A stretch of 32,184 nt of DNA from Spirochaetota bacterium (GTDB taxonomy: Bacteria; Spirochaetota; UBA4802; JAFGDQ01). Made by a program: the position numbers and the translations under genes. Shown piece after piece: positions 2,067 to 32,184 of the stretch. Each line of letters begins with the position of its first letter. Position 1 is the first letter of the stretch. The stretch spans positions 1-32,184 of the forward strand of contig JAZDKB010000054.1 of NCBI GenBank assembly GCA_043803405.1, written 5' to 3'. Below the pieces are notes generated by a model that saw nothing but the letters and a program-made list of their open reading frames with translations, was not told the DNA's origin and searched no databases.

Positions 2067-3524
2067 ATGCAAAATCGGTCTGGTTTGGCTCTTAGTCCGC
2101 TTGTAGATGATTCAGATAATGTCGTTTCCCTGTCCGCAGCCAGGGAACGCAAGTACAATCCTCAGGCAGCGTTCTACGCTCTGCCTAAAGCTTTTATAAA
2201 CCGTCTGCTTTTCAGTATGTCCGGGTCCACTCTCAAGGTTTTCCTTGCTCTGGTCTATCATACTGACTGCTGGAACGTTATCAAGTATCCTGGAAAGATA
2301 ACTCATTCCAATTTAATGAAGACCACCGGCATTAAGAAAAAAGAAACTATCTCAAATGCCTATAAAGAGCTCGAAGAACTCAGCATAATCGGCGGTTATA
2401 CTCCCGGCCATGGAGCGGATAACACTAAATTCTATTTTACGTTCGATATAAATCATTACAGGACAGATGAATGCTGTCTTGATCAGGCCGAAATATCCTC
2501 TTATTATGAAATGCTTTTATCCGGTAAATTTACAAACATGCCTTTTAGTGATCCTGCAGGTTCGGATAAAGAGACTGCTTCAAATGAATCCATAGATTTG
2601 TCTGGCTTTCCGGAGGAATCAGAGCCGGTTGGTAATGTATCACAGGCCTGCAGCGATGATTATGACATACCCGAATCCTCTGCAGCATCCTTCAGTGATG
2701 AAAATAAGTCTTCATGTTCTTCATCTTCGCTTAATTATGCCTTTACTATAGCGAGCTCGTGGGGTACTGAAATAAAATTATATCATAATGAAAATCCAGA
2801 TATCTTCTTTTTAGAAGATGGTTCTTTCTTTTGTGACAAAGATGATTTCTTTAAAAATTATCAGCATTGTGTAATTAAAGATACACTTACTATACAAGAG
2901 CCGGTGCAGACAATTACCTGTGAACTAGGCATTATACCAGCAGGTGTACCGGAAAACGGCATGCCCTCCCCCCTTGAAACGGCACAGGGGAGTACCGAAA
3001 AAAAGGACTCCCTTAAAACTATAAATAGCTATAAAATTAATAAACTAATAGTTATGGCTCAAAAAGATTTTAATTTTATTCATGAATTTAATAATTTCTG
3101 CATTGACGATTCTCCAAAGTATCTCAAAAATACTTTGTACTGGCTTATTCAGCATGCAGTTGATTTTAACTTGTCCCTCGGTGATGTCATAGACTCACTG
3201 AATGCCGCGAACAACAAAGGCAAGCACGGCAAAATGTGTTACCTGGTCGGCGTAATGCGAAACAAGGCCGGGAACAATTCCCGCGGCCTCAAGGTGATCA
3301 CAAAGCCGGAATTTGTCCAGGCAAAAGAGTATTTCAGCGAGCGTTTCGGCCATTGCATTGAGTATTTAAAATCATACAGCTTTGACTGGACAGCCGGGGA
3401 GCTTCGGTATACTCTCAAAGATCCGGCCAAAGACAGATCTTATCTTGCTGAATTTTTTAAATTTGTTGTTGAAGATATAAAAAAAGCTGTAGGGGTTTCT
3501 TTATCTCACGTTGAGGTTGCTTAA
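2067..3524 (+). CDS. Putative replication initiator (N-terminal winged-HTH, phage/plasmid Rep-like)
   Basis: N-terminal MSGSTLKVFLALVYH...LMKTTGIKKKETISNAYKELEELSII resembles a Rep wHTH; low-complexity linker; C-terminal YLVGVMRN resembles DnaD/Rep C-termini; strong RBS GGGAGG; antisense RNA upstream and internal repeats. Confidence 0.6.
   Translation: MQNRSGLALSPLVDDSDNVVSLSAARERKYNPQAAFYALPKAFINRLLFSMSGSTLKVFLALVYHTDCWNVIKYPGKITHSNLMKTTGIKKKETISNAYKELEELSIIGGYTPGHGADNTKFYFTFDINHYRTDECCLDQAEISSYYEMLLSGKFTNMPFSDPAGSDKETASNESIDLSGFPEESEPVGNVSQACSDDYDIPESSAASFSDENKSSCSSSSLNYAFTIASSWGTEIKLYHNENPDIFFLEDGSFFCDKDDFFKNYQHCVIKDTLTIQEPVQTITCELGIIPAGVPENGMPSPLETAQGSTEKKDSLKTINSYKINKLIVMAQKDFNFIHEFNNFCIDDSPKYLKNTLYWLIQHAVDFNLSLGDVIDSLNAANNKGKHGKMCYLVGVMRNKAGNNSRGLKVITKPEFVQAKEYFSERFGHCIEYLKSYSFDWTAGELRYTLKDPAKDRSYLAEFFKFVVEDIKKAVGVSLSHVEVA
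2946..3052. repeat. Three imperfect 23-bp iteron-like repeats plus AT-rich tract; candidate replication origin inside rep
   Basis: 2946 gtaccggaaaacggcatgccctc, 2969 cccccttgaaacggcacagggga, 2992 gtaccgaaaaaaaggactccctt, followed by aaaactataaatagctataaaattaataaactaata. Confidence 0.5.
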
Positions 3525-3775
3525 AGTATTTGTGTTTTTGTGTGACCGGTATTATTATTAAAAAATGTATTCATAGGTTGTTTATTGTTTTTTAGCTGTT
3601 TTAGGCTTTACAGTTTGGCCTGTACGGCGTTTTATTTATTTAGCTAATGCATAGGTTATCCCGTTCAGGCTGTTTATCTTAAAAAATTCATATTTTTATG
3701 CCGGCTGCTTATTGTGTGTTTGTTGAATTTGAAAGGTAAAGTGGTAGCAAATTCAATTATAGGCAGGTAAGTGAA

Positions 3776-4951: not shown

Positions 4952-5127
4952 TGTAAATATTGGCTTATTGTAAATAATTCTTGATTTTTCCATCTTTTAC
5001 TCTTCTCTATTTGGCCTGTATTGCGTTTTATTTATCCTTTTAATATAATTGGTTGTTTTTTTAAAATTTTTTAGAGTAGGGTAGGGGTGTCAGTATTCTT
5101 TTATAAAGTAATACTTTATATGTTCTG

Positions 5128-12846: not shown

Positions 12847-12925
12847 TAAAAAACCGCCCTTTATGCTAACAATTCCCCTGCAGGAGTCATTAGCCATTGA
12901 GGCGGTTTGGGTGAACTCCATCACC
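12847..12925 (-). promoter_or_regulatory. Fluoride riboswitch A (crcB motif) with overlapping intrinsic terminator
   Basis: Minus strand GGTGATGGAGTTCACCCAAACCGCCTCAATGGCTAATGACTCCTGC fits the fluoride aptamer (GGAGT/ACTCC pseudoknot); AAACCGCC pairs with downstream GGCGGTTT followed by a U-run. Confidence 0.93.
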
Positions 12926-13116
12926 TTAAATTAGTGATAGTTATAAATCTGTAAAATACTAATACATAAAAAGTCATTATTCATTTTTATGTCAAGATAA
13001 TTTTTATCATGTTACAAAATGAAACGTCGGGTATTTTTTCATATTTTAACAAAATAATCTGAATAATATATTGACAGTCATTCAATATATATGCCATGTT
13101 TAATAACATTAAAGTG

Positions 13117-13165
13117 GGCGATGGAGTTCGCCGTTAATCGCTTAAGCTCGCTGATGACTCCTACC
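13117..13165 (+). promoter_or_regulatory. Fluoride riboswitch B (crcB motif)
   Basis: GGCGATGGAGTTCGCCGTTAATCGCTTAAGCTCGCTGATGACTCCTACC; TTGACA at 13071 upstream. Confidence 0.92.
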
Positions 13166-13256
13166 ATAGCATAGAACCATCTAATTACGAATTTATATTC
13201 CGAATAAAAATAGAACTTCCATTCGGCGGAAATGTCGCGTAAAAGAGGATGGCCGA

Positions 13257-15025: not shown

Positions 15026-15057
15026 GTCGGTTTTACTCCTACCGCAGAAAAACACGC

Positions 15058-15106
15058 AGCAGGAGTCATCAGCTAAAATAGCGTTTATGAGGGGGACTCC
15101 ATCCCC
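15058..15106 (-). promoter_or_regulatory. Fluoride riboswitch C (crcB motif) upstream of eno
   Basis: Minus strand GGGGATGGAGTCCCCCTCATAAACGCTATTTTAGCTGATGACTCCTGC. Confidence 0.93.
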
Positions 15107-15475
15107 GATTATTAATTAACAGAAGTATTATTATAAAGCTTAATAAATTTTTGATCGTCATAAGTCAAGATAAATTTATCTGTCAAAAAGATACTTCGGA
15201 CAACTCCGTTGACCAAATTATCTTCTCTCTTACCTTTAAGTTAGCCTTTCATTTTTAATCTTTCAGCAATACAAAAGATAAGTTGCCGTTTACCTCATCC
15301 CTGCTTCGGGTCGAGATTGCGGTCAAGCCAATACTTTAACGCTGGCTTGCCCGCAAACTCTCCCCTTATTGTTCGCAAAAGGCAGCATGACAATTATTTT
15401 TCTTCTGTAAACGTCTCCCTCCTCACCCCCACCATGGCAAAGGTCGCATTGTGGTGTTTATCCCCTGCACGTGGT

Positions 15476-15839
15476 AGCCAGATTATACTGTAATATATGC
15501 TCTGTTTTTCTGTTTCTATTTTCTTGTGCCGGCCGACATTTTATCTGCTACATGCCCCCTTTAGTGTAAATCTTGTCTATCATTGTTGATGGTCACATTG
15601 ACATAACGCAAGTTATGGTAAGTTACCCTCATTGTTTGTTTTTTCTGCTTCTTAATGCTTTGCTTTCGGGCATCTTCCCATAACTGGCGTTATATCACAT
15701 TGCCGGGCTACGCAATCGCGTTATTTGTTTTCTTATTGCTTCGCCTCGGCAATGAACCTCCCGTAAGTCTTTTTTTACGAGTTCGCGCGGGGGCAGGGCA
15801 GGGTGCTGATCCTCGCATATATTACAGTATAATCTGGCT
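15476..15839. repeat. Perfect 25-bp inverted repeat enclosing 314 bp
   Basis: agccagattatactgtaatatatgc (15476-15500) is the exact reverse complement of gcatatattacagtataatctggct (15815-15839). Confidence 0.92.
15596..15700. other. Two inverted dif/Xer-like 28-bp sites
   Basis: 15623-15596 (minus) acttaccataa-cttgcg-ttatgtcaatg and 15673-15700 (plus) tcttcccataa-ctggcg-ttatatcacat; both have the 11-6-11 CATAA-N6-TTAT layout. Confidence 0.5.
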
Positions 15840-16525
15840 TTTTAAACCCCACCCGCCCAGTCGGGCAATTCGTATATCTTCCTAAAGCGGGTTCGTGCCG
15901 CACGTCCGTGTGCGGCACTTGCTCGGCTTCCTGCCTCGCAACCCTTAGTCTATCAGTTTTTGTCCGTCTGTCTGCTTTCGTTTTTGCCCTCCTTCCCGGG
16001 TGCAGGGGATAGAGTTTGCTGTTTTTGCTCCGGAGGAGAGGTGGGGGTGAGGAGGGAGATGGGTAGTTCCCGGACGCAGCTTCTTTCGCCGGTGCGTCGC
16101 TTCTGTTTCGCTTGTTTTGTTTTCTTTGCTGTTGCTTCGCTCTTATGCCCGCCCACCCTTTAAATGTAAGTTTTGAAAGCCTGGCCGGTGTCTACTTTTC
16201 TTTTTGTCTTTCTTTCCTGAAAGCCCGCCGGAGTACAGCCCCGCTCATTCCTGGGGGCTTTGGTAAAGTTTTAAAAACCGTCCTGCCCTGGAAAAACCAG
16301 TTCAGGCCGGTATTTTAATCTTCTTTTATTTTTTTCCAGGAGTCCGCGGGGCAGTACACCGGCTTGTCTTGTTAATTTAGTTTTTTTGTGATCCGGCCAG
16401 TCTTTAAAAACTCTCATCGCCCTAAAAGCAGTAAAAGCTAATAAATAGATTTTTTAAAATTTTACTCTTCTCAGATTGCTTTATACAGCGTTTAAAAAAG
16501 TAGCCAAGGGGGAAAGGGCAGGGGA

Positions 16526-16705
16526 TTACTTATCTTCCGGCATGTTTATATTGTGTTTCATGCAGTAAAGGGCGGCTTTCCTCAGAAAGTCCCCGATCTT
16601 AATTCCCTTATCAATGCAGTAATGTGAAATATTTTTGTGTTCCTCAGAGGTGAGCTGCACAGTCGGGCGCTTCATGTTGTCGTATTGGTTCTTCTTATCT
16701 TTCAT
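16526..16705 (-). CDS. Small ribbon-helix-helix (CopG/ParG-like) DNA-binding protein, 59 aa; not in the ORF track
   Basis: MKDKKNQYDNMKRPTVQLTSEEHKNISHYCIDKGIKIGDFLRKAALYCMKHNINMPEDK*, a strand-helix-G-helix pattern; TTGACC-N17-TATAAA ends 6 nt before the ATG. Confidence 0.75.
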   Translation of the reverse strand: MKDKKNQYDNMKRPTVQLTSEEHKNISHYCIDKGIKIGDFLRKAALYCMKHNINMPEDK

Positions 16706-19383: not shown

Positions 19384-19580
19384 GCAGTTATATCCCTTTA
19401 TTTGTTAATTTTTTTCATGAGACATAAAATATATTATCAGAACAAAAAAATATAAATGTTTAGTTTTATTTGTATAAACCCGCCGTCCCAATCCCGCCAA
19501 CATTTTTAATAGAAATCAGTGCAAAAAAAATTTTTGCAGCAAAATTGCGATACCAGTTTGCAAAAATTGTATTTATTTAA

Positions 19581-19646
19581 ATTTCGCAAAAATACGTTGC
19601 GAAATTTATTTTTGTTGACATTTCGCAATAAGTATTATTATGTCTC
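19581..19646 (+). promoter_or_regulatory. parA promoter/operator region
   Basis: Inverted repeat atttcgcaa-N7-ttgcgaaat, a further tttcgcaa copy and TTGACA at 19615. Confidence 0.55.
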
Positions 19647-19665
19647 CTTAAAAAGGAGGAAGCGT

Positions 19666-20592
19666 ATGAATAACTTTGACCTTCTATCGATTAAAGAAGC
19701 AAGCAAAATTTCCAGGATCCCTGATCGCACCATAAGGGACTGGATGAACGATTCCACTTTACAGACCTATAAGAATGATAACAATGTAATTTGCGTCAAT
19801 AGACGGGAGTTGCTCACCTCTGTTCCGACTGTTCTGACCATATTCAATCAGAAAGGCGGCTGCGGGAAAACATCGCTCAGCGTGCTTCTCGCGGACTATT
19901 ACGAAAAAAAGAAAGCTAAGGTTCTGCTTGTCGATTTTGATCAGCAGGGAAATCTCACCCAGACTTATTTTGCTTATGACGAGCTGAAGGACTCCCTCAG
20001 CCTTTACGATTACTTTGAAAAGAAAACCCCGCTTTCCAAGATGCTGAAAACATATAACGAGTACATAGACATCATACCGTCAAATATAAAACTGTCCCGC
20101 AAGGACAATTACGATATCGATGACCTTGACGCAATGCGCAAAGACTTTGCCCCGGTTTTTAAGAAGTGCAATGTCGTAATCATAGACTGTCCCCCTTCCC
20201 TGAATTCATTTTCAAAATTCGGGCTTATAATGAGCAATTATGTTTTAATTCCTGTGGTCCCGGAGCCATATAATTATGACGGCCTTTTTGAAGTCATGAA
20301 TACTATTAAGCGTCTGCAGAAATTTATCGAAGGCTTTATTGATTACAAAGTCGTTATTTCTGCACATGAACAGAGAATCATCAAGATTCATGAAAATTAT
20401 ATTGAGTTAATACGCAACGAGCTCAACGGCAAGGTTGCCGAACAATCAATACCCAATTTTGTCGGCATTAAGGAACGGAGTTTTCAGAAAAAGAATATAT
20501 TTGACATGTACGATTCCGATAAATCAGTTCAAAAAACTATGGCTCTTCTTAATGAGCTCGATTCGTTTATATACGACCAGAGAGGTGCCTGA
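19666..20592 (+). CDS. parA: ParA/Soj partition ATPase with N-terminal HTH
   Basis: Deviant Walker A NQKGGCGKT, VDFDQQGNLT, IIDCPPSL; N-terminal LSIKEASKISRIPDRTIRDW. Start at 19666 behind AGGAGG. Confidence 0.92.
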   Translation: MNNFDLLSIKEASKISRIPDRTIRDWMNDSTLQTYKNDNNVICVNRRELLTSVPTVLTIFNQKGGCGKTSLSVLLADYYEKKKAKVLLVDFDQQGNLTQTYFAYDELKDSLSLYDYFEKKTPLSKMLKTYNEYIDIIPSNIKLSRKDNYDIDDLDAMRKDFAPVFKKCNVVIIDCPPSLNSFSKFGLIMSNYVLIPVVPEPYNYDGLFEVMNTIKRLQKFIEGFIDYKVVISAHEQRIIKIHENYIELIRNELNGKVAEQSIPNFVGIKERSFQKKNIFDMYDSDKSVQKTMALLNELDSFIYDQRGA

Positions 20593-21392
20593 TGGCAAAG
20601 ACATTTGATTTATCTAAAATGAAACGCGGGAAGAGCCTTTCCGAAGCAGCAGAGAACATTGAGAACATGAGCGAGGAAACATCGGAAAGCATTGACGACC
20701 TTTTGCTCAATCCTCACAAGGAAAAAGTAACCAAAGCAGTTGCAGCGATCCGCCGTGATCCGTTCCTGGTGGACGAAGATAAAAATAAGCTCTTAAGCAC
20801 TCTCCGTTCGCAGTTTGCCGGCCTGTTTAACCTGAATAACTGCCCGAACGATTATGAATCACTCAAGCTTGAGGCTGTATTCCTAGCCGACCTGATGCAG
20901 GTTTCCTTTGTCCTTTTAGGCCAGAGACTTTTAAAAATAAGAGACAATGAGCTTTACCTATCGGATGGTTACAAGGACTTTAAAACATTTGTTGAGAAGG
21001 AAATAAAAATTGGTCGAACAACTGCTTATAATTATATCGATCTTGTTTCTTGTTTTGGTGTTCAAGCGCTTGAACACGGGAATGTCCCGGATCCTTCAAA
21101 ACTGATCCCCCTGCTGCCTGTTCTTAAAGCTAACCGCGAGGATATCCCGACAGAAGATATTAAATCCGAGTTCATTAAGAAAGCAAAAACCTCATCTTTC
21201 CGTGACCTGAAAGGCGAAATTAAACAACTTAAAATTCAGTATGGTCTGGCGAAAGAACCCGATGACATCGACAGGCTCGACAGGGCTTTTAATATTTTAA
21301 TGACTTCGTTCCCTGCAAAGCTTACAGCTGCGGATAAAAAGAAAATCAGAGATTATGTTAAGAAATTAAATTCTCTTTTGGACAGGAAATAG
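20592..21392 (+). CDS. Putative partition partner of ParA (non-canonical; DUF3102/pGP6-D/Borrelia PFam49-like)
   Basis: Coupled to parA (TGATG); LGQRLLKIRDNELY...GYKDFKTFVEKEIKIGRTTAYNYI; no GxRR ParB CTPase motif. Confidence 0.65.
   Translation: MAKTFDLSKMKRGKSLSEAAENIENMSEETSESIDDLLLNPHKEKVTKAVAAIRRDPFLVDEDKNKLLSTLRSQFAGLFNLNNCPNDYESLKLEAVFLADLMQVSFVLLGQRLLKIRDNELYLSDGYKDFKTFVEKEIKIGRTTAYNYIDLVSCFGVQALEHGNVPDPSKLIPLLPVLKANREDIPTEDIKSEFIKKAKTSSFRDLKGEIKQLKIQYGLAKEPDDIDRLDRAFNILMTSFPAKLTAADKKKIRDYVKKLNSLLDRK
21058..21077. repeat. Perfect 20-bp palindrome inside the partition gene; candidate parS-like site
   Basis: gtgttcaagc|gcttgaacac. Confidence 0.6.
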
Positions 21393-21474
21393 TGCGCTTT
21401 ATTTTTTTACTTATACGGTCTGCATGTTAGCGTCTAGCAACTTTATGGCGTATTCGTTTATATATTTTGTGTTT

Positions 21475-21512
21475 ATAAAAAAATCGAGGAGATGTCTCCT
21501 CGATTTTTTTAT
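21475..21512. terminator. Bidirectional intrinsic terminator
   Basis: ataaaaaaatcgaggaga-tg-tctcctcgatttttttat. Confidence 0.9.
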
Positions 21513-21610
21513 ATTATTATGTCGTTCGCCTTTTTCTCGACTCTCCGCCACTGCAGAGTACGCTTCCATACGGAACTTTCATATGGAAACTGATCGATTT
21601 AAAAGACGTT
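21475..21610 (-). ncRNA. Putative structured small RNA (three-way junction) with its own promoter and terminator
   Basis: TTGACA at 21642-21637 with AT-rich -10; stems CGTCTTTT/AAAAGGCG, TCGA/TCGA, TTCCATATG/CGTATGGAA, CTCTGC/GCGGAG. Three G-U pairs all favour the minus strand. Confidence 0.6.
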
Positions 21611-21684: not shown

Positions 21685-22260
21685 TTACCCTTTCTCCACC
21701 TCAACACATGTATACTCGATCTCGGCATAAGCATTCTCGATCTCTATTTCCGTTTCCTGTATACTTAGAGTGTGTTCGTCTATCCTGTCATCGAGTTTTG
21801 CCACCTCAACGGGATCCTCTTCGCCTTTCTTTATCTGGTTCAGTTTCCATATCTTGCTTAAAATTAAGTATTTTCTCTCTATCAGCTTCTTTATCTTAAA
21901 CTCATAGCTCTCTAGTTTCCTGTGTGCCTTTAGTTTTGCTGCTTCCCTCGCGTTCTGCCTGTCGTTTATTTCAAATACCTGGCTTGTGCTAATCGACGCA
22001 CTGTAGTGGTTTTCCTTTTCCTGGAATTCGCTTTCAGTGGCCTGTCTTGAAACCCCTACGTTCGGAAACAATTTAAAAAAATCACTTCCTCTTACAACGG
22101 AAGCTTTTTCAATTCTTTTGTTAGCCTCCCCTACCCTTTTCGTCAGGTCTTTGAGTTCCTGCTGTTTATCTTCCTGCAATGATCCAAAGGCATTAAAATT
22201 AATACATAATAAGACGATAATTGCCGTTATTATTATAATGGGTTTGTTTTTCATATTCAT
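21685..22260 (-). CDS. Secreted coiled-coil protein, possibly a single outer-membrane efflux (TolC-like) repeat
   Basis: Signal peptide; helix, LFPNVGVS...YSASISTSQVFE beta pair, then helices ending DPVEVAKL...IENAYAEIE. Confidence 0.55.
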   Translation of the reverse strand: MNMKNKPIIIITAIIVLLCINFNAFGSLQEDKQQELKDLTKRVGEANKRIEKASVVRGSDFFKLFPNVGVSRQATESEFQEKENHYSASISTSQVFEINDRQNAREAAKLKAHRKLESYEFKIKKLIERKYLILSKIWKLNQIKKGEEDPVEVAKLDDRIDEHTLSIQETEIEIENAYAEIEYTCVEVEKG

Positions 22261-22279
22261 ATCCTATGGAGCATAAATT

Positions 22280-22432
22280 ATGAAACCTGTTGTAATTCTT
22301 GCACAGGCAAAAGACCTTCTTTCCTATGTTAAGGGTATTCAGAATGTTGACCGGTTAAGTCTTCTGGAAATAAATAAAAGATTATTGAAAATGCAACTGG
22401 AAACTTCAGAAATTTTAGAAAAAATTGAATAG
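22280..22432 (+). CDS. Possible 50-aa helical protein (not in the ORF track)
   Basis: GGAG RBS then MKPVVILAQAKDLLSYVKGIQNVDRLSLLEINKRLLKMQLETSEILEKIE*; only 19 bp from the divergent start, so doubtful. Confidence 0.35.
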   Translation: MKPVVILAQAKDLLSYVKGIQNVDRLSLLEINKRLLKMQLETSEILEKIE

Positions 22433-22632
22433 TTTTTTTGTTGCTTTTTATTCTTAAATGTCTGAATATAAATGTAACAAAAAGGCCATTTCGACTCAAA
22501 ACCGGTCTGGCTGATATGTTATTCGTGTTATTCCGCGTTTGATTTCATTTAATTTTACTGCCGTTTTGCGTATCTTTTATTATCGTATATTGATATATTT
22601 CATCTTAATTTTTAATTAATTTTTTATCAATT

Positions 22633-24036
22633 ATGAATGACAACAGAAAAATACCGGTATTCTTATCGCATGATGAGGCAAAAAAGCTAATCCAGGGGCT
22701 TCGGAAGGACAGGCATTCTCTCGGATTGTCTCTGATGTATTACGGGGGTCTGCGTGTTTCCGAGATGACTGACCTTCGGATCAGCGATATTCACCTTGCA
22801 CGCGGTTTCATGAAGATAAACGGCAAGGGCAATAAAGAAAGAATTGTTCCCATCAATAACCGTTTACAGAAGGTCATAGAAAGCTATCTCCAAAAGCATG
22901 GCCACAAATTATCTCAGGATTCCTTTCTTGTTGGCGGCGATCGCCGTTCCTGGCATTATGTTGTGAAGAAATATTCAGGCCTTAGCCTTGGGAGAGAAGA
23001 CGTTCACTGCCATACTCTCAGACACAGTTTTGCTACTGGAATGTATATTAAAGGGATCCCGCTTGAACGAATATCCCAGCTCCTCGGCCATTCTAAGCTC
23101 GATACTACCATGATCTACAGTCATATTTCCACAGAACAGAAGCAGGAAGCTGTCCGTTCTCTCGACGATTCACGATCGCGTTTATTCGGCTTGGTGACTT
23201 CTCTTTTCCCCGCAAAAAAGAAGGCCGATATCTCCCTGAAAGATTACGGTTCACTCATAGGCCGTGATAATGAAATCAAAGAATTGACCCGGTATATCGA
23301 ATCCGGTGTTTCCGTAATACTCTCCGGCCCTCCGGGCTGCGGTAAGTCTGCAATTCTCAGAGCTATAAAGAGCTCTGTTTTTATTGAGGAATTTAAGAAA
23401 AAACAAACCTTAATAAAGATCATTCTCTCAGGTCAGGAAATGGGGGATAAGGTATATAAAGAAGCTTCAAAAGAACTTAAAAAACTTTCCATAGATGAGC
23501 TCCTGCAGGAGATAAAAGGTTCAGGGAAGATTGTCGTGATAGACGAGATCACCGGCCTTTCTAAAACAGATAAAAAGACGATTGCTTCACTTGCGGAAAA
23601 TACTGTTGTCCTGGCTGCATCTTCCCGTCCTGCAGACAGGAAACTATTTAAAACATTTATTGAGATCAAACCTTTAAGCCGTCATTACTGCAGGTTCGTT
23701 CTTTCAGAAATAGTGCATATGACTGATCCGCAGGCAAAGGAAAGGATTATTGACGATATCTTGCACCAGGCAAGCAGTAATTTAAAGGAAGCCGAATATA
23801 TCGCAAGTCAGCTGCAGCTCGGTAAATCCTCTGAGGAGATCACTACCGATGTCCGGGAATCGAACCAGGTGTCGATCGCTCCTATTCTCCTGATATTCGT
23901 TCTGTTCTTTGTGGCCTATGTTCTCAAGTCTTATGCCACTTCAATGGTTGCTTTTTCCTATGCGCTCCTTGTCTGCTTCAGGCTCGTATTTTACAGGTTT
24001 ATATTCATGCCGGCAACAAGTAAAAATAAAGGGTAA
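22633..24036 (+). CDS. Tyrosine recombinase catalytic domain fused to a P-loop ATPase and C-terminal TM helices
   Basis: GLRVSE, GKGNKER, HTLRHSFAT, LLGHS, TTMIY (complete R-K-H-R-H-Y); LIGRDNEI, Walker A GPPGCGKS, Walker B IVVIDEI; two hydrophobic C-terminal segments. Confidence 0.88.
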   Translation: MNDNRKIPVFLSHDEAKKLIQGLRKDRHSLGLSLMYYGGLRVSEMTDLRISDIHLARGFMKINGKGNKERIVPINNRLQKVIESYLQKHGHKLSQDSFLVGGDRRSWHYVVKKYSGLSLGREDVHCHTLRHSFATGMYIKGIPLERISQLLGHSKLDTTMIYSHISTEQKQEAVRSLDDSRSRLFGLVTSLFPAKKKADISLKDYGSLIGRDNEIKELTRYIESGVSVILSGPPGCGKSAILRAIKSSVFIEEFKKKQTLIKIILSGQEMGDKVYKEASKELKKLSIDELLQEIKGSGKIVVIDEITGLSKTDKKTIASLAENTVVLAASSRPADRKLFKTFIEIKPLSRHYCRFVLSEIVHMTDPQAKERIIDDILHQASSNLKEAEYIASQLQLGKSSEEITTDVRESNQVSIAPILLIFVLFFVAYVLKSYATSMVAFSYALLVCFRLVFYRFIFMPATSKNKG

Positions 24037-24044
24037 ACAATTCA

Positions 24045-25286
24045 ATGATAGCCGGCACTCATTACGCTTTTTCCTGTCTACTGTGCACTGCGTCCGGCTT
24101 CGATTATCAGACAACGCTTGTTGCTTCTCTTGTCTCCCTGTTGCCGGACATAGATCATCCGGCCAGTTTGATTGGCCGTATCTTTTCAGGTCCGTCAAAG
24201 TATATTCTCAGAAAGTACGGGCATAGAACAGTTACTCATTCCGTCTTTGCCGTTTTGGCAGCAGCTCTTCTGTTCTCCCCTGCCCTATTCTTTAACCTTG
24301 CTTTATACTTTGCTGTTTTGCTTGCTTTTTCAAGTCATATATTCCTGGATATTTTCAACGTTGGCGGGGTCAAATTATTTGCTCCTGTTTCTCAGAAAGA
24401 ATATATTTCCTTCCATTCCCCGGGTCTCCGGATCCTTGTTTCTTCATGGAAAGAGTATGTTTTATTATTTCTAATCGTCTTGTCAGCCTTTATGCTTTCC
24501 GGTCAGGATTTCTCAATGCATAAAGCGGTGCGTTTTGTGAGTAAATATTTCTATAAGACTTATGATGCAGCGATTGTGGATTTTCAGGAAAACAGCAAAT
24601 ATCAATGTATTGCAAAGGTTTCGCATTTCGATCATGCAGGAAGAAAAAAAGTCGAGGAAGAATTCCCTGTCCTGAATCTTTTCCTTGAAAAGGCTTATCT
24701 GCTTAAAGACGGGAATCGGATTATCATAAAAAAAGCTGATATTGATGAGATAGAGATTGAATCAACAGTGAAACCTATCAGTGTTGAGGTCATTGATGGT
24801 AAGGATTTTAGTAAACTGTCTGCTATCCCTGCGGGTTCTTTTATTTCCGGGACAGTAAAGGTTAATGTCTGCCCTCTTGAGATCAAGAACAGCGATTATG
24901 TTAAAGTTGAGAAAGGTCTTAATGAGATTACTTTTTATCTTACTTATGCTACTCCGGATGAGCTTTCTGAGATCATCAGCATAGATAAGGCAAGGAAAGA
25001 CGAGATCGAAAAACTTCAATCCAAGCTATATTCACATCAGATCGATCTGCTCCGTAAGGAAGAAACTTCTTTAAAATCAAGGCTCTCTGTACTCAGGCGA
25101 AAAGGCTTTTACGCGAATTATGCTTCTATCACTTCTGTAAATAACGAGCTTAAAAAAGTTAGATCAAAGATCGAGTCTTTAAAGCTCAGTGTTAGTGCCG
25201 GTGCGGATCAGGATACGTTGAGGGAGATTGAAAAGCTTGACAGGGGATTTAAGGTGGAGTATAAGTTGTATATGTATAGAATGTAA
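24045..25286 (+). CDS. YdjM/DUF457-like membrane metal-dependent hydrolase with a large C-terminal soluble extension
   Basis: GTHYAF, LLPDIDHP, GHRTVTHS, SHIFLD motifs and several TM segments; ~250-aa beta-rich and coiled-coil tail; starts 8 bp after the recombinase fusion. Confidence 0.85.
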   Translation: MIAGTHYAFSCLLCTASGFDYQTTLVASLVSLLPDIDHPASLIGRIFSGPSKYILRKYGHRTVTHSVFAVLAAALLFSPALFFNLALYFAVLLAFSSHIFLDIFNVGGVKLFAPVSQKEYISFHSPGLRILVSSWKEYVLLFLIVLSAFMLSGQDFSMHKAVRFVSKYFYKTYDAAIVDFQENSKYQCIAKVSHFDHAGRKKVEEEFPVLNLFLEKAYLLKDGNRIIIKKADIDEIEIESTVKPISVEVIDGKDFSKLSAIPAGSFISGTVKVNVCPLEIKNSDYVKVEKGLNEITFYLTYATPDELSEIISIDKARKDEIEKLQSKLYSHQIDLLRKEETSLKSRLSVLRRKGFYANYASITSVNNELKKVRSKIESLKLSVSAGADQDTLREIEKLDRGFKVEYKLYMYRM

Positions 25287-30480: not shown

Positions 30481-32184
30481 ATGCCGTCACTAAGCTGGAA
30501 TGAGATCAAGACCAGGGCTGTAGAGTTCTCAAAAGAATGGGAAAATGAATCGAATGAAGATGCAGAAGCAAAATCTTTCTGGGATAACTTTTTTAATGTA
30601 TTCGGCATTTCCAGGCGAAGAGTCGCGACTTTTGAAAAGTTAGTTAATAAGTCGGCTGATACATCAGGTTATATTGATCTATTGTGGAAAAGCGTTATTC
30701 TTATTGAACATAAATCCCGGGGGAAAGATCTGGATAAAGCATATAAGCAGGCTATCGAGTATTTTCCCGGCCTTAAAGAAAGCGAGCTGCCTAAATATGT
30801 TCTTGTTTCCGATTTTGCCCGCTTTCGTTTATACGATCTTGAAGAAAGTTCCCAGCATGAATTTGTTATAACCGACCTGGTTAATAATGTACACCTGTTC
30901 GGATTTATTGCCGGATATCAGAAAAAATTATATAAAGAAGAAGACCCGGTCAATATTGAGGCAGCCGAACGCATGGGCAGGTTGCATGATAAGTTGCTGG
31001 AGATCGGTTATTCAGGGCACTTTCTGGAAATCTATCTTGTCAGGCTTTTATTCTGCCTGTTCTCGGATGACACAGGCATTTTTGAAAAAAACTTATTCCA
31101 TGATTATATTGAAACAAAAACAAGTGTTGATGGCAGTGATCTTGCAGCCCACCTTTCAACCCTGTTCTATGTATTGAACACTCCGCCGGAATCGCGATTA
31201 ACGAATCTTGATGAATCGCTCGCTTCTTTCCCTTATATCGACGGCAAGCTTTTTGAAGAGAATATCCCCCCGGCATCATTCGACAGTCAGATGAAGCAAC
31301 TGCTGCTTGATTGTTGCGATCTGAATTGGGGGAAGATATCCCCTGCGATCTTCGGCTCATTGTTCCAGTCAGTAATGGACCCGGAAAAAAGAAGGAATAT
31401 AGGAGGACATTATACTTCCGAGAAGAACATACTTAAATTGATCAAACCCTTGTTCCTTGATGAATTGTGGGATGAATTTTCGCGTGTAAAGAACAACAGG
31501 AATAAGCTTTCTGCTTTTCATAATAAAATTTCAAAATTAAAATTCTTGGATCCTGCATGCGGGTGTGGGAACTTTCTTATTATTACATACAGAGAAATCC
31601 GTTTGTTAGAGCTCGAAATTCTAAAAGTATTGTACTCAAATGAAATAGAAACTGGGCAGCATGTTTTTGAGATCGATGAATTTGAATTATTCATAGTTGA
31701 TGTTGATTCTTTTTACGGTATAGAAATTGAAGAATTTCCAGCCCGTATTGCTGAAGTCTCAATGTGGATGATGGATCATCAAATGAATATGAAAGTATCA
31801 GAGGCATTTGGTGAATATTATTCAAGATTGCCTTTAAAGAATAGTGCAAATATTGTAATCGGTAATGCGTTAAGGGTGAATTGGAATGATATTATGCCTT
31901 CTGGTAAGTTATCATATATCCTCGGTAATCCGCCGTTTATTGGTAAACATCTGCAAAATAAAGATCAGGGCGAAGATACGGAGATCATTTTTAAAGATAT
32001 AAAAGGCTCCGGCGTACTGGATTATGTAACTTGCTGGTATATTAAAGCTGCTCAATACATTCAGAAAACAAATATAAAGGTTGCCTTTGTTTCAACGAAT
32101 TCCATATCACAGGGCGAACAGGTCGGCATTCTCTGGAATGCGCTGTTTAATAAATATAATATAAAAATACATTTCGCGCATAGT
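30481..32184 (+). CDS. N-terminal part of MmeI-family type IIL restriction-modification enzyme (endonuclease plus adenine MTase); continues through the join to 1206, 922 aa in total
   Basis: MPSLSWNEIKTRAVEFSKEW; nuclease motif YIDLLWKSVILIEHKS; GGHYTSEKNI; motif I LDPACGCGNFL; motif IV GNPPF. Missing from the ORF track because it runs off the end. Confidence 0.93.
   Translation, partial: MPSLSWNEIKTRAVEFSKEWENESNEDAEAKSFWDNFFNVFGISRRRVATFEKLVNKSADTSGYIDLLWKSVILIEHKSRGKDLDKAYKQAIEYFPGLKESELPKYVLVSDFARFRLYDLEESSQHEFVITDLVNNVHLFGFIAGYQKKLYKEEDPVNIEAAERMGRLHDKLLEIGYSGHFLEIYLVRLLFCLFSDDTGIFEKNLFHDYIETKTSVDGSDLAAHLSTLFYVLNTPPESRLTNLDESLASFPYIDGKLFEENIPPASFDSQMKQLLLDCCDLNWGKISPAIFGSLFQSVMDPEKRRNIGGHYTSEKNILKLIKPLFLDELWDEFSRVKNNRNKLSAFHNKISKLKFLDPACGCGNFLIITYREIRLLELEILKVLYSNEIETGQHVFEIDEFELFIVDVDSFYGIEIEEFPARIAEVSMWMMDHQMNMKVSEAFGEYYSRLPLKNSANIVIGNALRVNWNDIMPSGKLSYILGNPPFIGKHLQNKDQGEDTEIIFKDIKGSGVLDYVTCWYIKAAQYIQKTNIKVAFVSTNSISQGEQVGILWNALFNKYNIKIHFAHS
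32044..32184. repeat. Terminal direct repeat (copy 2)
   Basis: Identical to 1-141. Confidence 0.97.

Follow-up and report, generated by a model that had tools for sequence, protein, structure and literature searches.

The window analysed here, a 32,184-nt stretch from a Spirochaetota bacterium (GenBank assembly GCA_043803405.1, contig JAZDKB010000054.1), carries a membrane-linked gene module centered on a recombinase fused to an ATPase. A 141-nt terminal direct repeat (1-141 equals 32044-32184) marks the window as a 32,043-bp circle. Three open reading frames (ORFs) were found where the original prediction placed them: HEL (21685-22260, reverse strand, 191 aa), INT (22633-24036, forward strand, 467 aa), and YDJ (24045-25286, forward strand, 413 aa). 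Two conserved parts absent from that prediction lie between HEL and INT: SMALL, a gene for a 50-aa amphipathic protein (22280-22432, forward strand), and a three-box DNA site (22455-22502). None of 29 scanned window proteins matched a relaxase or type IV secretion system (T4SS) Pfam family, in agreement with the earlier statement that the circle holds no other mobility genes.

INT was identified as a fusion of recombinase, ATPase, and membrane anchor from Pfam matches (Phage_integrase and an AAA domain), two C-terminal hydrophobic helices, and a structural model (mean predicted local distance difference test score, pLDDT, 82) with its fold matches. The layout comprised a Xer-like catalytic domain (aa 5-174), an AAA+/STAND-like ATPase (aa 205-410), and a membrane hairpin (aa ~413-457). 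Phage_integrase matched residues 10-167 (E 1.6e-31), and the catalytic set was complete, as predicted: among 50 aligned homologues R41, K65, R130, and H153 were invariant, and H127 and Y162 were present in 49. With this R-K-H-R-H-Y set and the lambda-Int catalytic fold, INT belongs with the tyrosine recombinases. Residues 5-174 folded like XerA (Z 22.3, root-mean-square deviation 2.8, 170 residues aligned) as well as IntI and XerH, and by fold and sequence profile together the nearest relatives of the domain were XerA, XerC, XerD, and IntI. INT contains no N-terminal core-binding (SAM-like) domain, its catalytic domain beginning at residue 5, and it scored below the NCBIfam cut-offs for full-length XerA (142 vs. 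220) and XerC (126 vs. 335). The homologue search returned approximately 100 full-length sequences among the best 120 matches; the few of these 120 that carried source names were all from Spirochaetota.

The ATPase part of INT (residues 205-417 in this comparison) resembled Cdc6/Orc1 (Z 14.4), plant NLR proteins, MuB (Z 12.2), and TnsC (Z 11.8) in fold. The Walker A G-K pair and Walker B D304 were kept in all 50 aligned homologues, while the second Walker B acid varied (D in 43, E in six, N in one). Coupling proteins have a RecA-type fold. The earlier comparison of INT with membrane-anchored coupling proteins does not hold, because the INT ATPase is of the AAA+ type (Cdc6/Orc1, STAND, MuB, TnsC) and not of the RecA or FtsK-HerA type; moreover, its anchor is C-terminal, not N-terminal. 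The proposed likeness to TcpM, the tyrosine-recombinase-fold relaxase of pCW3, was retained at the level of fold, but the domain was Xer-like and did not group with TcpM in a recombinase tree, where TcpM formed a long branch elsewhere, so that its placement is uncertain. The tree, which included TcpM and was built without MpsA and MobK, placed the Spirochaetota fusions in one clade (support 100/99) with other recombinases scattered.

YDJ begins 8 nt downstream of INT; this gap is the sole basis on which the two genes, as earlier proposed, may be co-transcribed. Its first 150 residues matched the YdjM family (PF04307; E 1.1e-22; 80.8 bits against a cut-off of 29), and eight of the nine checked His/Asp/Arg positions were kept in 63 of 63 sequences, with H6 kept in 62. 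The large tail of the predicted hydrolase was confirmed in the structural model (pLDDT 84.5), which showed the YdjM domain (aa 1-155) followed by a small beta-barrel (aa 160-243) and a second beta domain with an inserted helical hairpin (aa 304-399). YDJ is described here as a YdjM-family membrane metallo-hydrolase with a probable fused periplasmic adaptor; the count of predicted membrane helices would place the tail in the periplasm. The YDJ model gave no Foldseek match at E 0.001 (best Z 8.4), with no adaptor family among the listed fold matches; the barrel gave weak TrmB-, Hfq-, and MscS-type matches, the hairpin generic coiled-coil matches only, and the tail no usable match in the Atlas. 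The tail profile did match an adaptor-like protein of a cyanobacterial (Synechococcus) plasmid (E 2.8e-4).

Prediction of a complex between YDJ and INT residues 200-467 scored 0.35, compared with 0.00 for the best of three controls; repeat runs agreed in at least 75% of contacts, and partner pLDDT was at least 69. Of 157 solved pairs 116 passed, as did two of 215 mismatched pairs; passes at or below 0.60 comprised 18 of the solved pairs together with both mismatches. The multimer prediction suggested earlier thus set YDJ and the ATPase-transmembrane (TM) part of INT above controls at a score within the low-reliability range, which lends weak support to their association. Counterparts of the YdjM domain matched Zn_dep_PLPC weakly. 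The Zn_dep_PLPC-type fold also includes P1/S1 nucleases, and a strand-degrading role of YdjM is possible but speculative.

HEL is predicted to be secreted (N-terminal hydrophobic stretch) and mostly helical with one beta-hairpin, and it is probably a single-repeat (half) TolC-like outer-membrane factor. This label, given in the original prediction, is favored by predicted-structure likeness and gene position, but no sequence match to the outer-membrane efflux family OEP (PF02321) was found in Pfam searches of 30 HEL members. The HEL Atlas model reached template-modelling scores by query of 0.54-0.55 over 133-138 residues to OEP/TolC clusters, below the threshold for family naming, and a feature score of 0.92 to Pseudomonadota clusters of 217 and 240 aa, sizes that match the helical partners in gammaproteobacterial modules. 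At 191 aa HEL accommodates one repeat and not the two of TolC. Searches against PDB sequences returned coiled-coil noise only; counterparts at the HEL position in other modules do match OEP. Among 401 genomes from the phylum, HEL was found in 13, every one within the order of the host.

SMALL was present at 49-50 aa with a Shine-Dalgarno-like motif in 16 of 16 loci examined, and its mismatches by codon position (0.40/0.25/0.59) followed a coding pattern of change. The protein contains no hydrophobic segment and gave no Pfam, PADLOC, or PHROG match; it is a candidate accessory factor or substrate. The site downstream of it consists of three 10-bp boxes: box A (22456-22465), an inverted box B (22473-22482) after 7 nt, and box C (22489-22498) after a freely variable 6-nt spacer (22483-22488). 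Of 23 loci, 22 showed this geometry without gaps. Within elements, boxes A and C co-varied (4.8 vs. 3.5 of six matches; 0 of 10,000 shuffles) among 19 loci, some of them closely related. A profile scan of the host assembly, chromosome included (G000), in which the best five hits per strand and contig were inspected, gave no second strong site (best other 18.3 bits against 29.4 bits for the window copy, itself in the training set). Two regions had been named earlier as candidate recombinase targets: 22430-22630 contains the conserved site near 22480, and 15280-16410 contains one loose core-motif match, at 16162. A search of eight stretches ahead of Bacteroidota fusions or separate recombinases did not find the site and gave two loose motif matches.

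Tyrosine-recombinase core sites, dif among them, have conserved arms on either side of a free 6-nt spacer. The three boxes fit this core geometry plus one accessory repeat, an arrangement compatible with a resolution site, a site resembling an origin of transfer (oriT), or an operator. The site persists unbroken in 22 of the 23 loci, and four module contigs were circular, so that it does not serve for integration in these elements. Integration at the site was also considered as a source of split modules, sought in five genomes, and was rejected: no match to ATPase-TM or YDJ turned up elsewhere in the genomes with INT-less HEL remnants, which look like decay for that reason.

The gene order recurred elsewhere, answering the concern in the original prediction that the three genes might not be syntenic. 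Within a set of 39 contigs or loci, HEL and SMALL lay upstream of the fusion in 23 of 25 related loci and YDJ downstream in 25 of 28; for fusions of at least 40% identity with enough flank, and before the locus L274 was added, the counts were 23 of 24 and 25 of 27. Apart from L274, the misses were L276, a fragment of the ATPase on a chromosome; L191, whose fusion was truncated; and L094, a short contig into which a gene had been inserted. The fusion was missing from five loci, four with HEL alone or with SMALL and one with a YDJ fragment; among the HEL loci two had a broken HEL in a chromosome-like context and one was cut by the contig end. Across 12 contigs HEL, SMALL, INT, and YDJ co-diverged (rho 0.73-0.88), while module proteins and ParA did not (rho -0.13 to -0.01). 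The module genes are thus inherited as a unit, independent of ParA.

Four module contigs were circular, from 6.46 to 42 kb, with at least two Rep types identified. The smallest circle (L092, 6.46 kb) encoded, besides the module, a Phage_CRI-type Rep (E 5.7e-6), a NikA-like repressor, and a handful of short ORFs. In 103 further proteins, mostly of related contigs, no relaxase or T4SS family was found, the remaining host assembly lying outside this search. At E 0.001, matches to the ATPase-TM part came from 30 of the 122 genomes in the order; those in 16 genomes were strong (E <1e-20), and the others were generic ATPases.

Beyond the phylum, the ATPase-TM part of the window matched three Bacteroidota plasmids, and YDJ matched 69 plasmids, 65 of which were typed non-mobilizable; some of the YDJ matches were via a short YdjM domain only. 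Twenty plasmid regions were read. A core of an AAA+-TM ATPase and a long YdjM protein, often with a half-TolC and an adaptor, was found on complete plasmids of Bacteroidota, Thermus, cyanobacteria, Gammaproteobacteria, Fusobacteria, and Thermococcus. The recombinase-ATPase-TM fusion stood beside a long YdjM gene in Haliscomenobacter (two), Flavobacterium, Spirosoma, and Flammeovirga MY04, the last with its long YdjM split into two ORFs; on Thiospirochaeta pSpe a recombinase-ATPase fusion spanned the record start near its long YdjM. The ATPase-TM protein was unfused in Thermus, cyanobacteria, Allochromatium, Nitrosococcus, Methylobacter, Desulfocapsa, Fusobacteria, and Thermococcus, and two regions (pSYSM and Flammeovirga kamogawensis) had YdjM without the ATPase. 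On the Desulfocapsa plasmid, genes for a recombinase, a helical protein, the ATPase, and YdjM formed one overlapping run.

Most modules of diderm bacteria included helical partners of 159-324 aa. OEP was matched above the cut-off by the Thermus partner (E 3.6e-13) and weakly by those of Flavobacterium and Fusobacteria, and a joint profile of helical partners matched OEP at 91.9%. The Thermus YdjM terminates in a hairpin flanked by lipoyl-type motifs, and weak lipoyl matches (E ~0.003) were obtained for this protein and a neighbor protein on pSYSX. The pSYSX and Synechococcus modules included a separate adaptor-like protein plus a TrwB/HerA-type ATPase (TrwB_AAD_bind, E 1.5e-10 in the Synechococcus module). 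The Thermococcus module had no TolC-like gene and encoded an Ig-domain surface protein instead. PDB sequence searches with the pSYSX and Thermus counterparts gave nothing significant.

Phage_integrase domains were found on eight of ten plasmids searched and were absent from pTBMP1 and the F. kamogawensis plasmid. The recombinase, treated in the original prediction as part of the machine, is not constant: it was fused only in Spirochaetota and Bacteroidota, and the ATPase was unfused in Thermus, Gammaproteobacteria, and cyanobacteria. From the plasmid-region survey and the recombinase tree, the fixed core is the ATPase-TM protein with the long YdjM protein, the recombinase being lineage-specific.

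Two other features of the module plasmids were recorded. Cyanobacterial plasmids (L309, L312, L315:4678-5247) encoded recombinases of 187-189 aa, also without a core-binding domain, one of which lay ~6 kb from the module on pSYSX. Thermonuclease (SNase) genes recurred on L289, L292, L293, L313, L315, and L195, often within a few kb of the module.

Plasmids matched by the Methylobacter ATPase were typed non-mobilizable in 47 of 48 cases, and those matched by the pSYSX ATPase in 45 of 47. Of 61 cyanobacterial plasmids carrying a CyRepA1 initiator, 38 were so typed (Fisher p 2e-5 against the 45 of 47). Because the sets overlap and include repeat records of the same plasmid, so that records are not independent, this contrast is only a hint.

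Taken together, we put at about even the chances that the locus is the version, within Spirochaetota, of a plasmid module found widely whose products assemble into an envelope-spanning machine, most likely one that exports the plasmid's own DNA. HEL would oligomerise into an outer-membrane channel, six single repeats being roughly equivalent to a TolC trimer, and the YDJ hairpin would bridge the periplasm in the manner of adaptors. The YdjM domain and the membrane hairpin of the ATPase would form the inner-membrane part, with the AAA+ ring providing energy or gating. The fusion would hold the recombinase domain at the membrane, where it could bind the three boxes and cut at the 6-nt spacer, docking the plasmid at the channel and opening or monomerising it for export. 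SMALL may serve as an accessory factor. A tethered recombinase probably could not travel with the DNA as a pilot protein, and uptake may therefore depend on the recipient, as in Thermus transjugation. Where the fusion is missing, this part might fall to a separate recombinase, in cyanobacteria to a TrwB/HerA-type ATPase, or to another component. The minimal nicking-ATPase-envelope system of the original prediction is consistent with synteny and with the OEP-grade half-TolC, lipoyl-hairpin adaptors, and TrwB/HerA-type ATPase of relatives, but the ATPase of INT is no coupling protein and its recombinase looks Xer-like rather than TcpM-like. The broader proposal, held with somewhat less confidence than an even chance, is a T4SS-independent class of plasmid DNA transfer in bacteria and archaea: a half-size TolC/adaptor conduit, a membrane AAA+ ATPase, a YdjM membrane hydrolase acting either as channel or as strand-degrading nuclease, and a tethered recombinase that would, in Spirochaetota and Bacteroidota, open the plasmid at a three-box origin.

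Several observations weigh against DNA export by such a machine. DNA transfer is a prediction from genes and modelled structures, and no AAA+ ATPase of this clade is known to act as a conjugation DNA pump. The sequence link between HEL and TolC is weak, with hhalign giving 0.3% to OEP and the HEL profile only 0.6% to the counterpart half-TolCs. The YdjM proteins of Gammaproteobacteria, Desulfocapsa, and Fusobacteria have no hairpin, nor did a separate adaptor appear next to them; the fusions of Haliscomenobacter, Spirosoma, and Flammeovirga had no TolC-like neighbor in the stretches read. No recombinase was found on the Thermococcus plasmid, recombinases on the Nitrosococcus, Allochromatium, and Methylobacter plasmids lay 20-34 kb from the module, and the recombinases of module plasmids formed no single clade in the tree. 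On a chromosome-like contig a full-length fusion stood alone, without HEL, SMALL, or YDJ (L274:1821-3218). Finally, mobility (MOB) typing is poor for these taxa, and 62% of the control set was also non-mobilizable.

Plasmid maintenance would account for part of these data. Here INT would be a membrane-tethered, ATPase-stimulated resolvase of multimers acting at a dif/lox-like site, an analogue of Xer-FtsK, with the envelope proteins anchoring or positioning the plasmid. A catalytic domain like those of XerA, XerC, and XerD, a site directly ahead of INT whose 10-bp inverted arms flank a free 6-nt spacer, and the persistence of an intact site on circular elements all suit such a role, and recombinases on other module plasmids resemble ordinary separate enzymes. 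Maintenance leaves unexplained why an outer-membrane factor and a periplasmic hairpin co-diverge with the recombinase, as well as the depletion of typed mobility genes and the TrwB/HerA-type ATPase; most of the larger elements already have ParA systems. We regard this explanation as unlikely.

Export of a protein, peptide, or lipid-derived product by a pump-less, type I-like route appears quite unlikely. SMALL could be a bacteriocin, or an adhesin could be the cargo, with YdjM processing it and the recombinase a regulator or passenger. Type I secretion does combine TolC, an adaptor, and an inner-membrane ATPase; SMALL is short, amphipathic, and always linked in this lineage, and in both Thermococcus and Thiospirochaeta the gene after YdjM encodes a large Ig-domain surface protein. 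Yet no cargo gene common across phyla was seen in the plasmid regions read, an intact recombinase is fused to the motor in two phyla, and the archaeal version occurs without an outer membrane.

Defense or exclusion, in which the STAND-like ATPase would sense incoming DNA or phage and trigger a membrane hydrolase or pore, is improbable. The resemblance of the ATPase to STAND/NLR domains and the restriction, CBASS-type, and toxin-antitoxin cargo of these plasmids point that way; against it, PADLOC (2023) gave only weak generic ATPase matches, the best at E 1.9e-5, with YDJ, HEL, and SMALL left unmatched, no sensor domain was found, and the module is a fixed backbone while the defense cargo varies. 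Extrusion of filamentous or capsid-less particles in an inovirus-like manner, with SMALL as coat and the ATPase-TM part as morphogenesis motor, is very improbable: the 6.46-kb circle with its Phage_CRI Rep, the C-terminally anchored ATPase, and a 50-aa helical protein would suit it, but SMALL has no hydrophobic segment, SMALL, HEL, and the YDJ tail had no PHROG match, none of 20 pattern matches in viral contigs was confirmed, phage records gave no match, and the elements reach 67 kb.

The circle that carries the module fits its assigned host, given that it shares a 257-bp stretch at 90% identity with a chromosomal contig (C19) of the same assembly and that its tetranucleotide correlation with the remaining assembly was 0.98. 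Its context genes include a probable replication initiator, O-like with a helix-turn-helix (2067-3524, forward strand; PHROG replication initiation O-like, E 1e-11; a relative matched HTH_36), and a partition pair of ParA and a Borrelia PFam49-like partner (19519-21392, forward strand). A likely terminator with an 18-bp stem (21474-21513) lies between the converging par genes and HEL. A promoter scan returned 11 candidates against 11.2 expected.

The cargo of the circle was mixed. Three fluoride riboswitches (12874-12934, reverse; 13108-13170, forward; 15053-15115, reverse) precede a dynamin-like GTPase/phosphatase/three MutS-like genes, a 140-aa ORF, and an enolase carried on the plasmid; together they may form a fluoride-response cargo island. 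A perfect 25-nt inverted repeat (15476-15500 and 15815-15839, 314 nt apart) sits in a 1.4-kb non-coding, GC-richer stretch that could be an invertible segment or an origin; three sequencing runs gave sparse contigs only, with no strand-switch joint at the repeat. A 46-nt imperfect repeat occurred in three copies (3587-3632, 4983-5028, 16448-16493), the middle one within the 257-bp stretch shared with C19. A ribbon-helix-helix-like ORF of 59 aa (16526-16705, reverse strand) was common to eight module contigs, its L092 copy matching NikA-like, and an MmeI-type restriction-modification gene spans the circle junction (30481-32184 and 1-1206). On module plasmid L195 (9756-12422) a short YdjM-like gene directly precedes a patatin gene and a CBASS-like SMODS-AGS_C nucleotidyltransferase gene.

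Should the module prove not to move DNA, a machine of half-TolC, adaptor, AAA+, and YdjM parts that has no known pump and is fused to a recombinase would still match no described system that was found; the literature searched, which covered few subscription papers, contained no description of the module. Many plasmids have no known means of transfer, and DNA export, if true, would explain the spread of "non-mobilizable" plasmids and give YdjM a function. The idea is directly testable, since the module is on plasmids of laboratory-tractable organisms: Thermus thermophilus, Synechocystis PCC 6803 (pSYSX), Thermococcus barophilus, and Thiospirochaeta perfilievii. The form seen in the window offers what other forms do not: a catalytic residue and an exact candidate target site, both open to mutation, and a minimal element of 6.46 kb.

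Among known systems, the tripartite exporters (HlyBD-TolC, MacAB-TolC, EmrAB-TolC) share with the wider module an outer-membrane factor, a hairpin adaptor, and an inner-membrane ATPase. The module differs in that its TolC is single-repeat, its adaptor is fused to YdjM or absent, its ATPase is AAA+ with a two-helix anchor, and a recombinase and DNA site are attached; no ABC, RND, or MFS transporter was found among module genes in the window and the plasmid regions read. In Thermus transjugation, according to the abstract, the donor pushes DNA out and the competence system of the recipient takes it up (PMC5365140). This push-out concept, in the abstract, and the TrwB/HerA-type ATPase of cyanobacterial modules are points of likeness. 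The proteins that it lists for ICETh1 transjugation are TdtA and NurA along with a restriction enzyme and a recombinase; YdjM, TolC, and AAA+-TM proteins are not among them, and on that abstract, rather than on sequence, ICETh1 is set apart.

The XerCD/XerA-dif-FtsK and Cre-loxP resolvases resemble INT in fold and profiles, inverted arms with a 6-nt spacer, and the link to a membrane-anchored ATPase. Unlike them, INT has no core-binding domain, carries AAA+ in the same chain, has a third box at its site, and is co-inherited with envelope proteins. MOB_M relaxases (TcpM of pCW3, MpsA/B of SGI1, MobK of pIGRK) share the tyrosine-recombinase fold, a repeat-bearing site directly upstream, and a small neighbor gene, and the conjugation locus of pCW3 also encodes a short YdjM-family protein, TcpI (L285:16483-16977). 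The oriT lies just upstream of the gene for both MobK (PMC8152469) and TcpM (PMC6137059), the small partner MpsB, a protein in its own right, resembles a core-binding domain (PMC6414798), and MOB_M membership is defined by a score of at least 84 on a published profile (bioRxiv 10.64898/2026.01.13.699239). Those relaxases use a T4SS and a coupling protein, whereas INT is Xer-like and fused to a membrane ATPase; ~95 residues precede the catalytic domain of TcpM, whereas INT starts at it. The module thus falls outside type I secretion, the coupling proteins, and the Xer recombinases, has an exporter-like layout, and may act in a MOB_M-like manner at its site.

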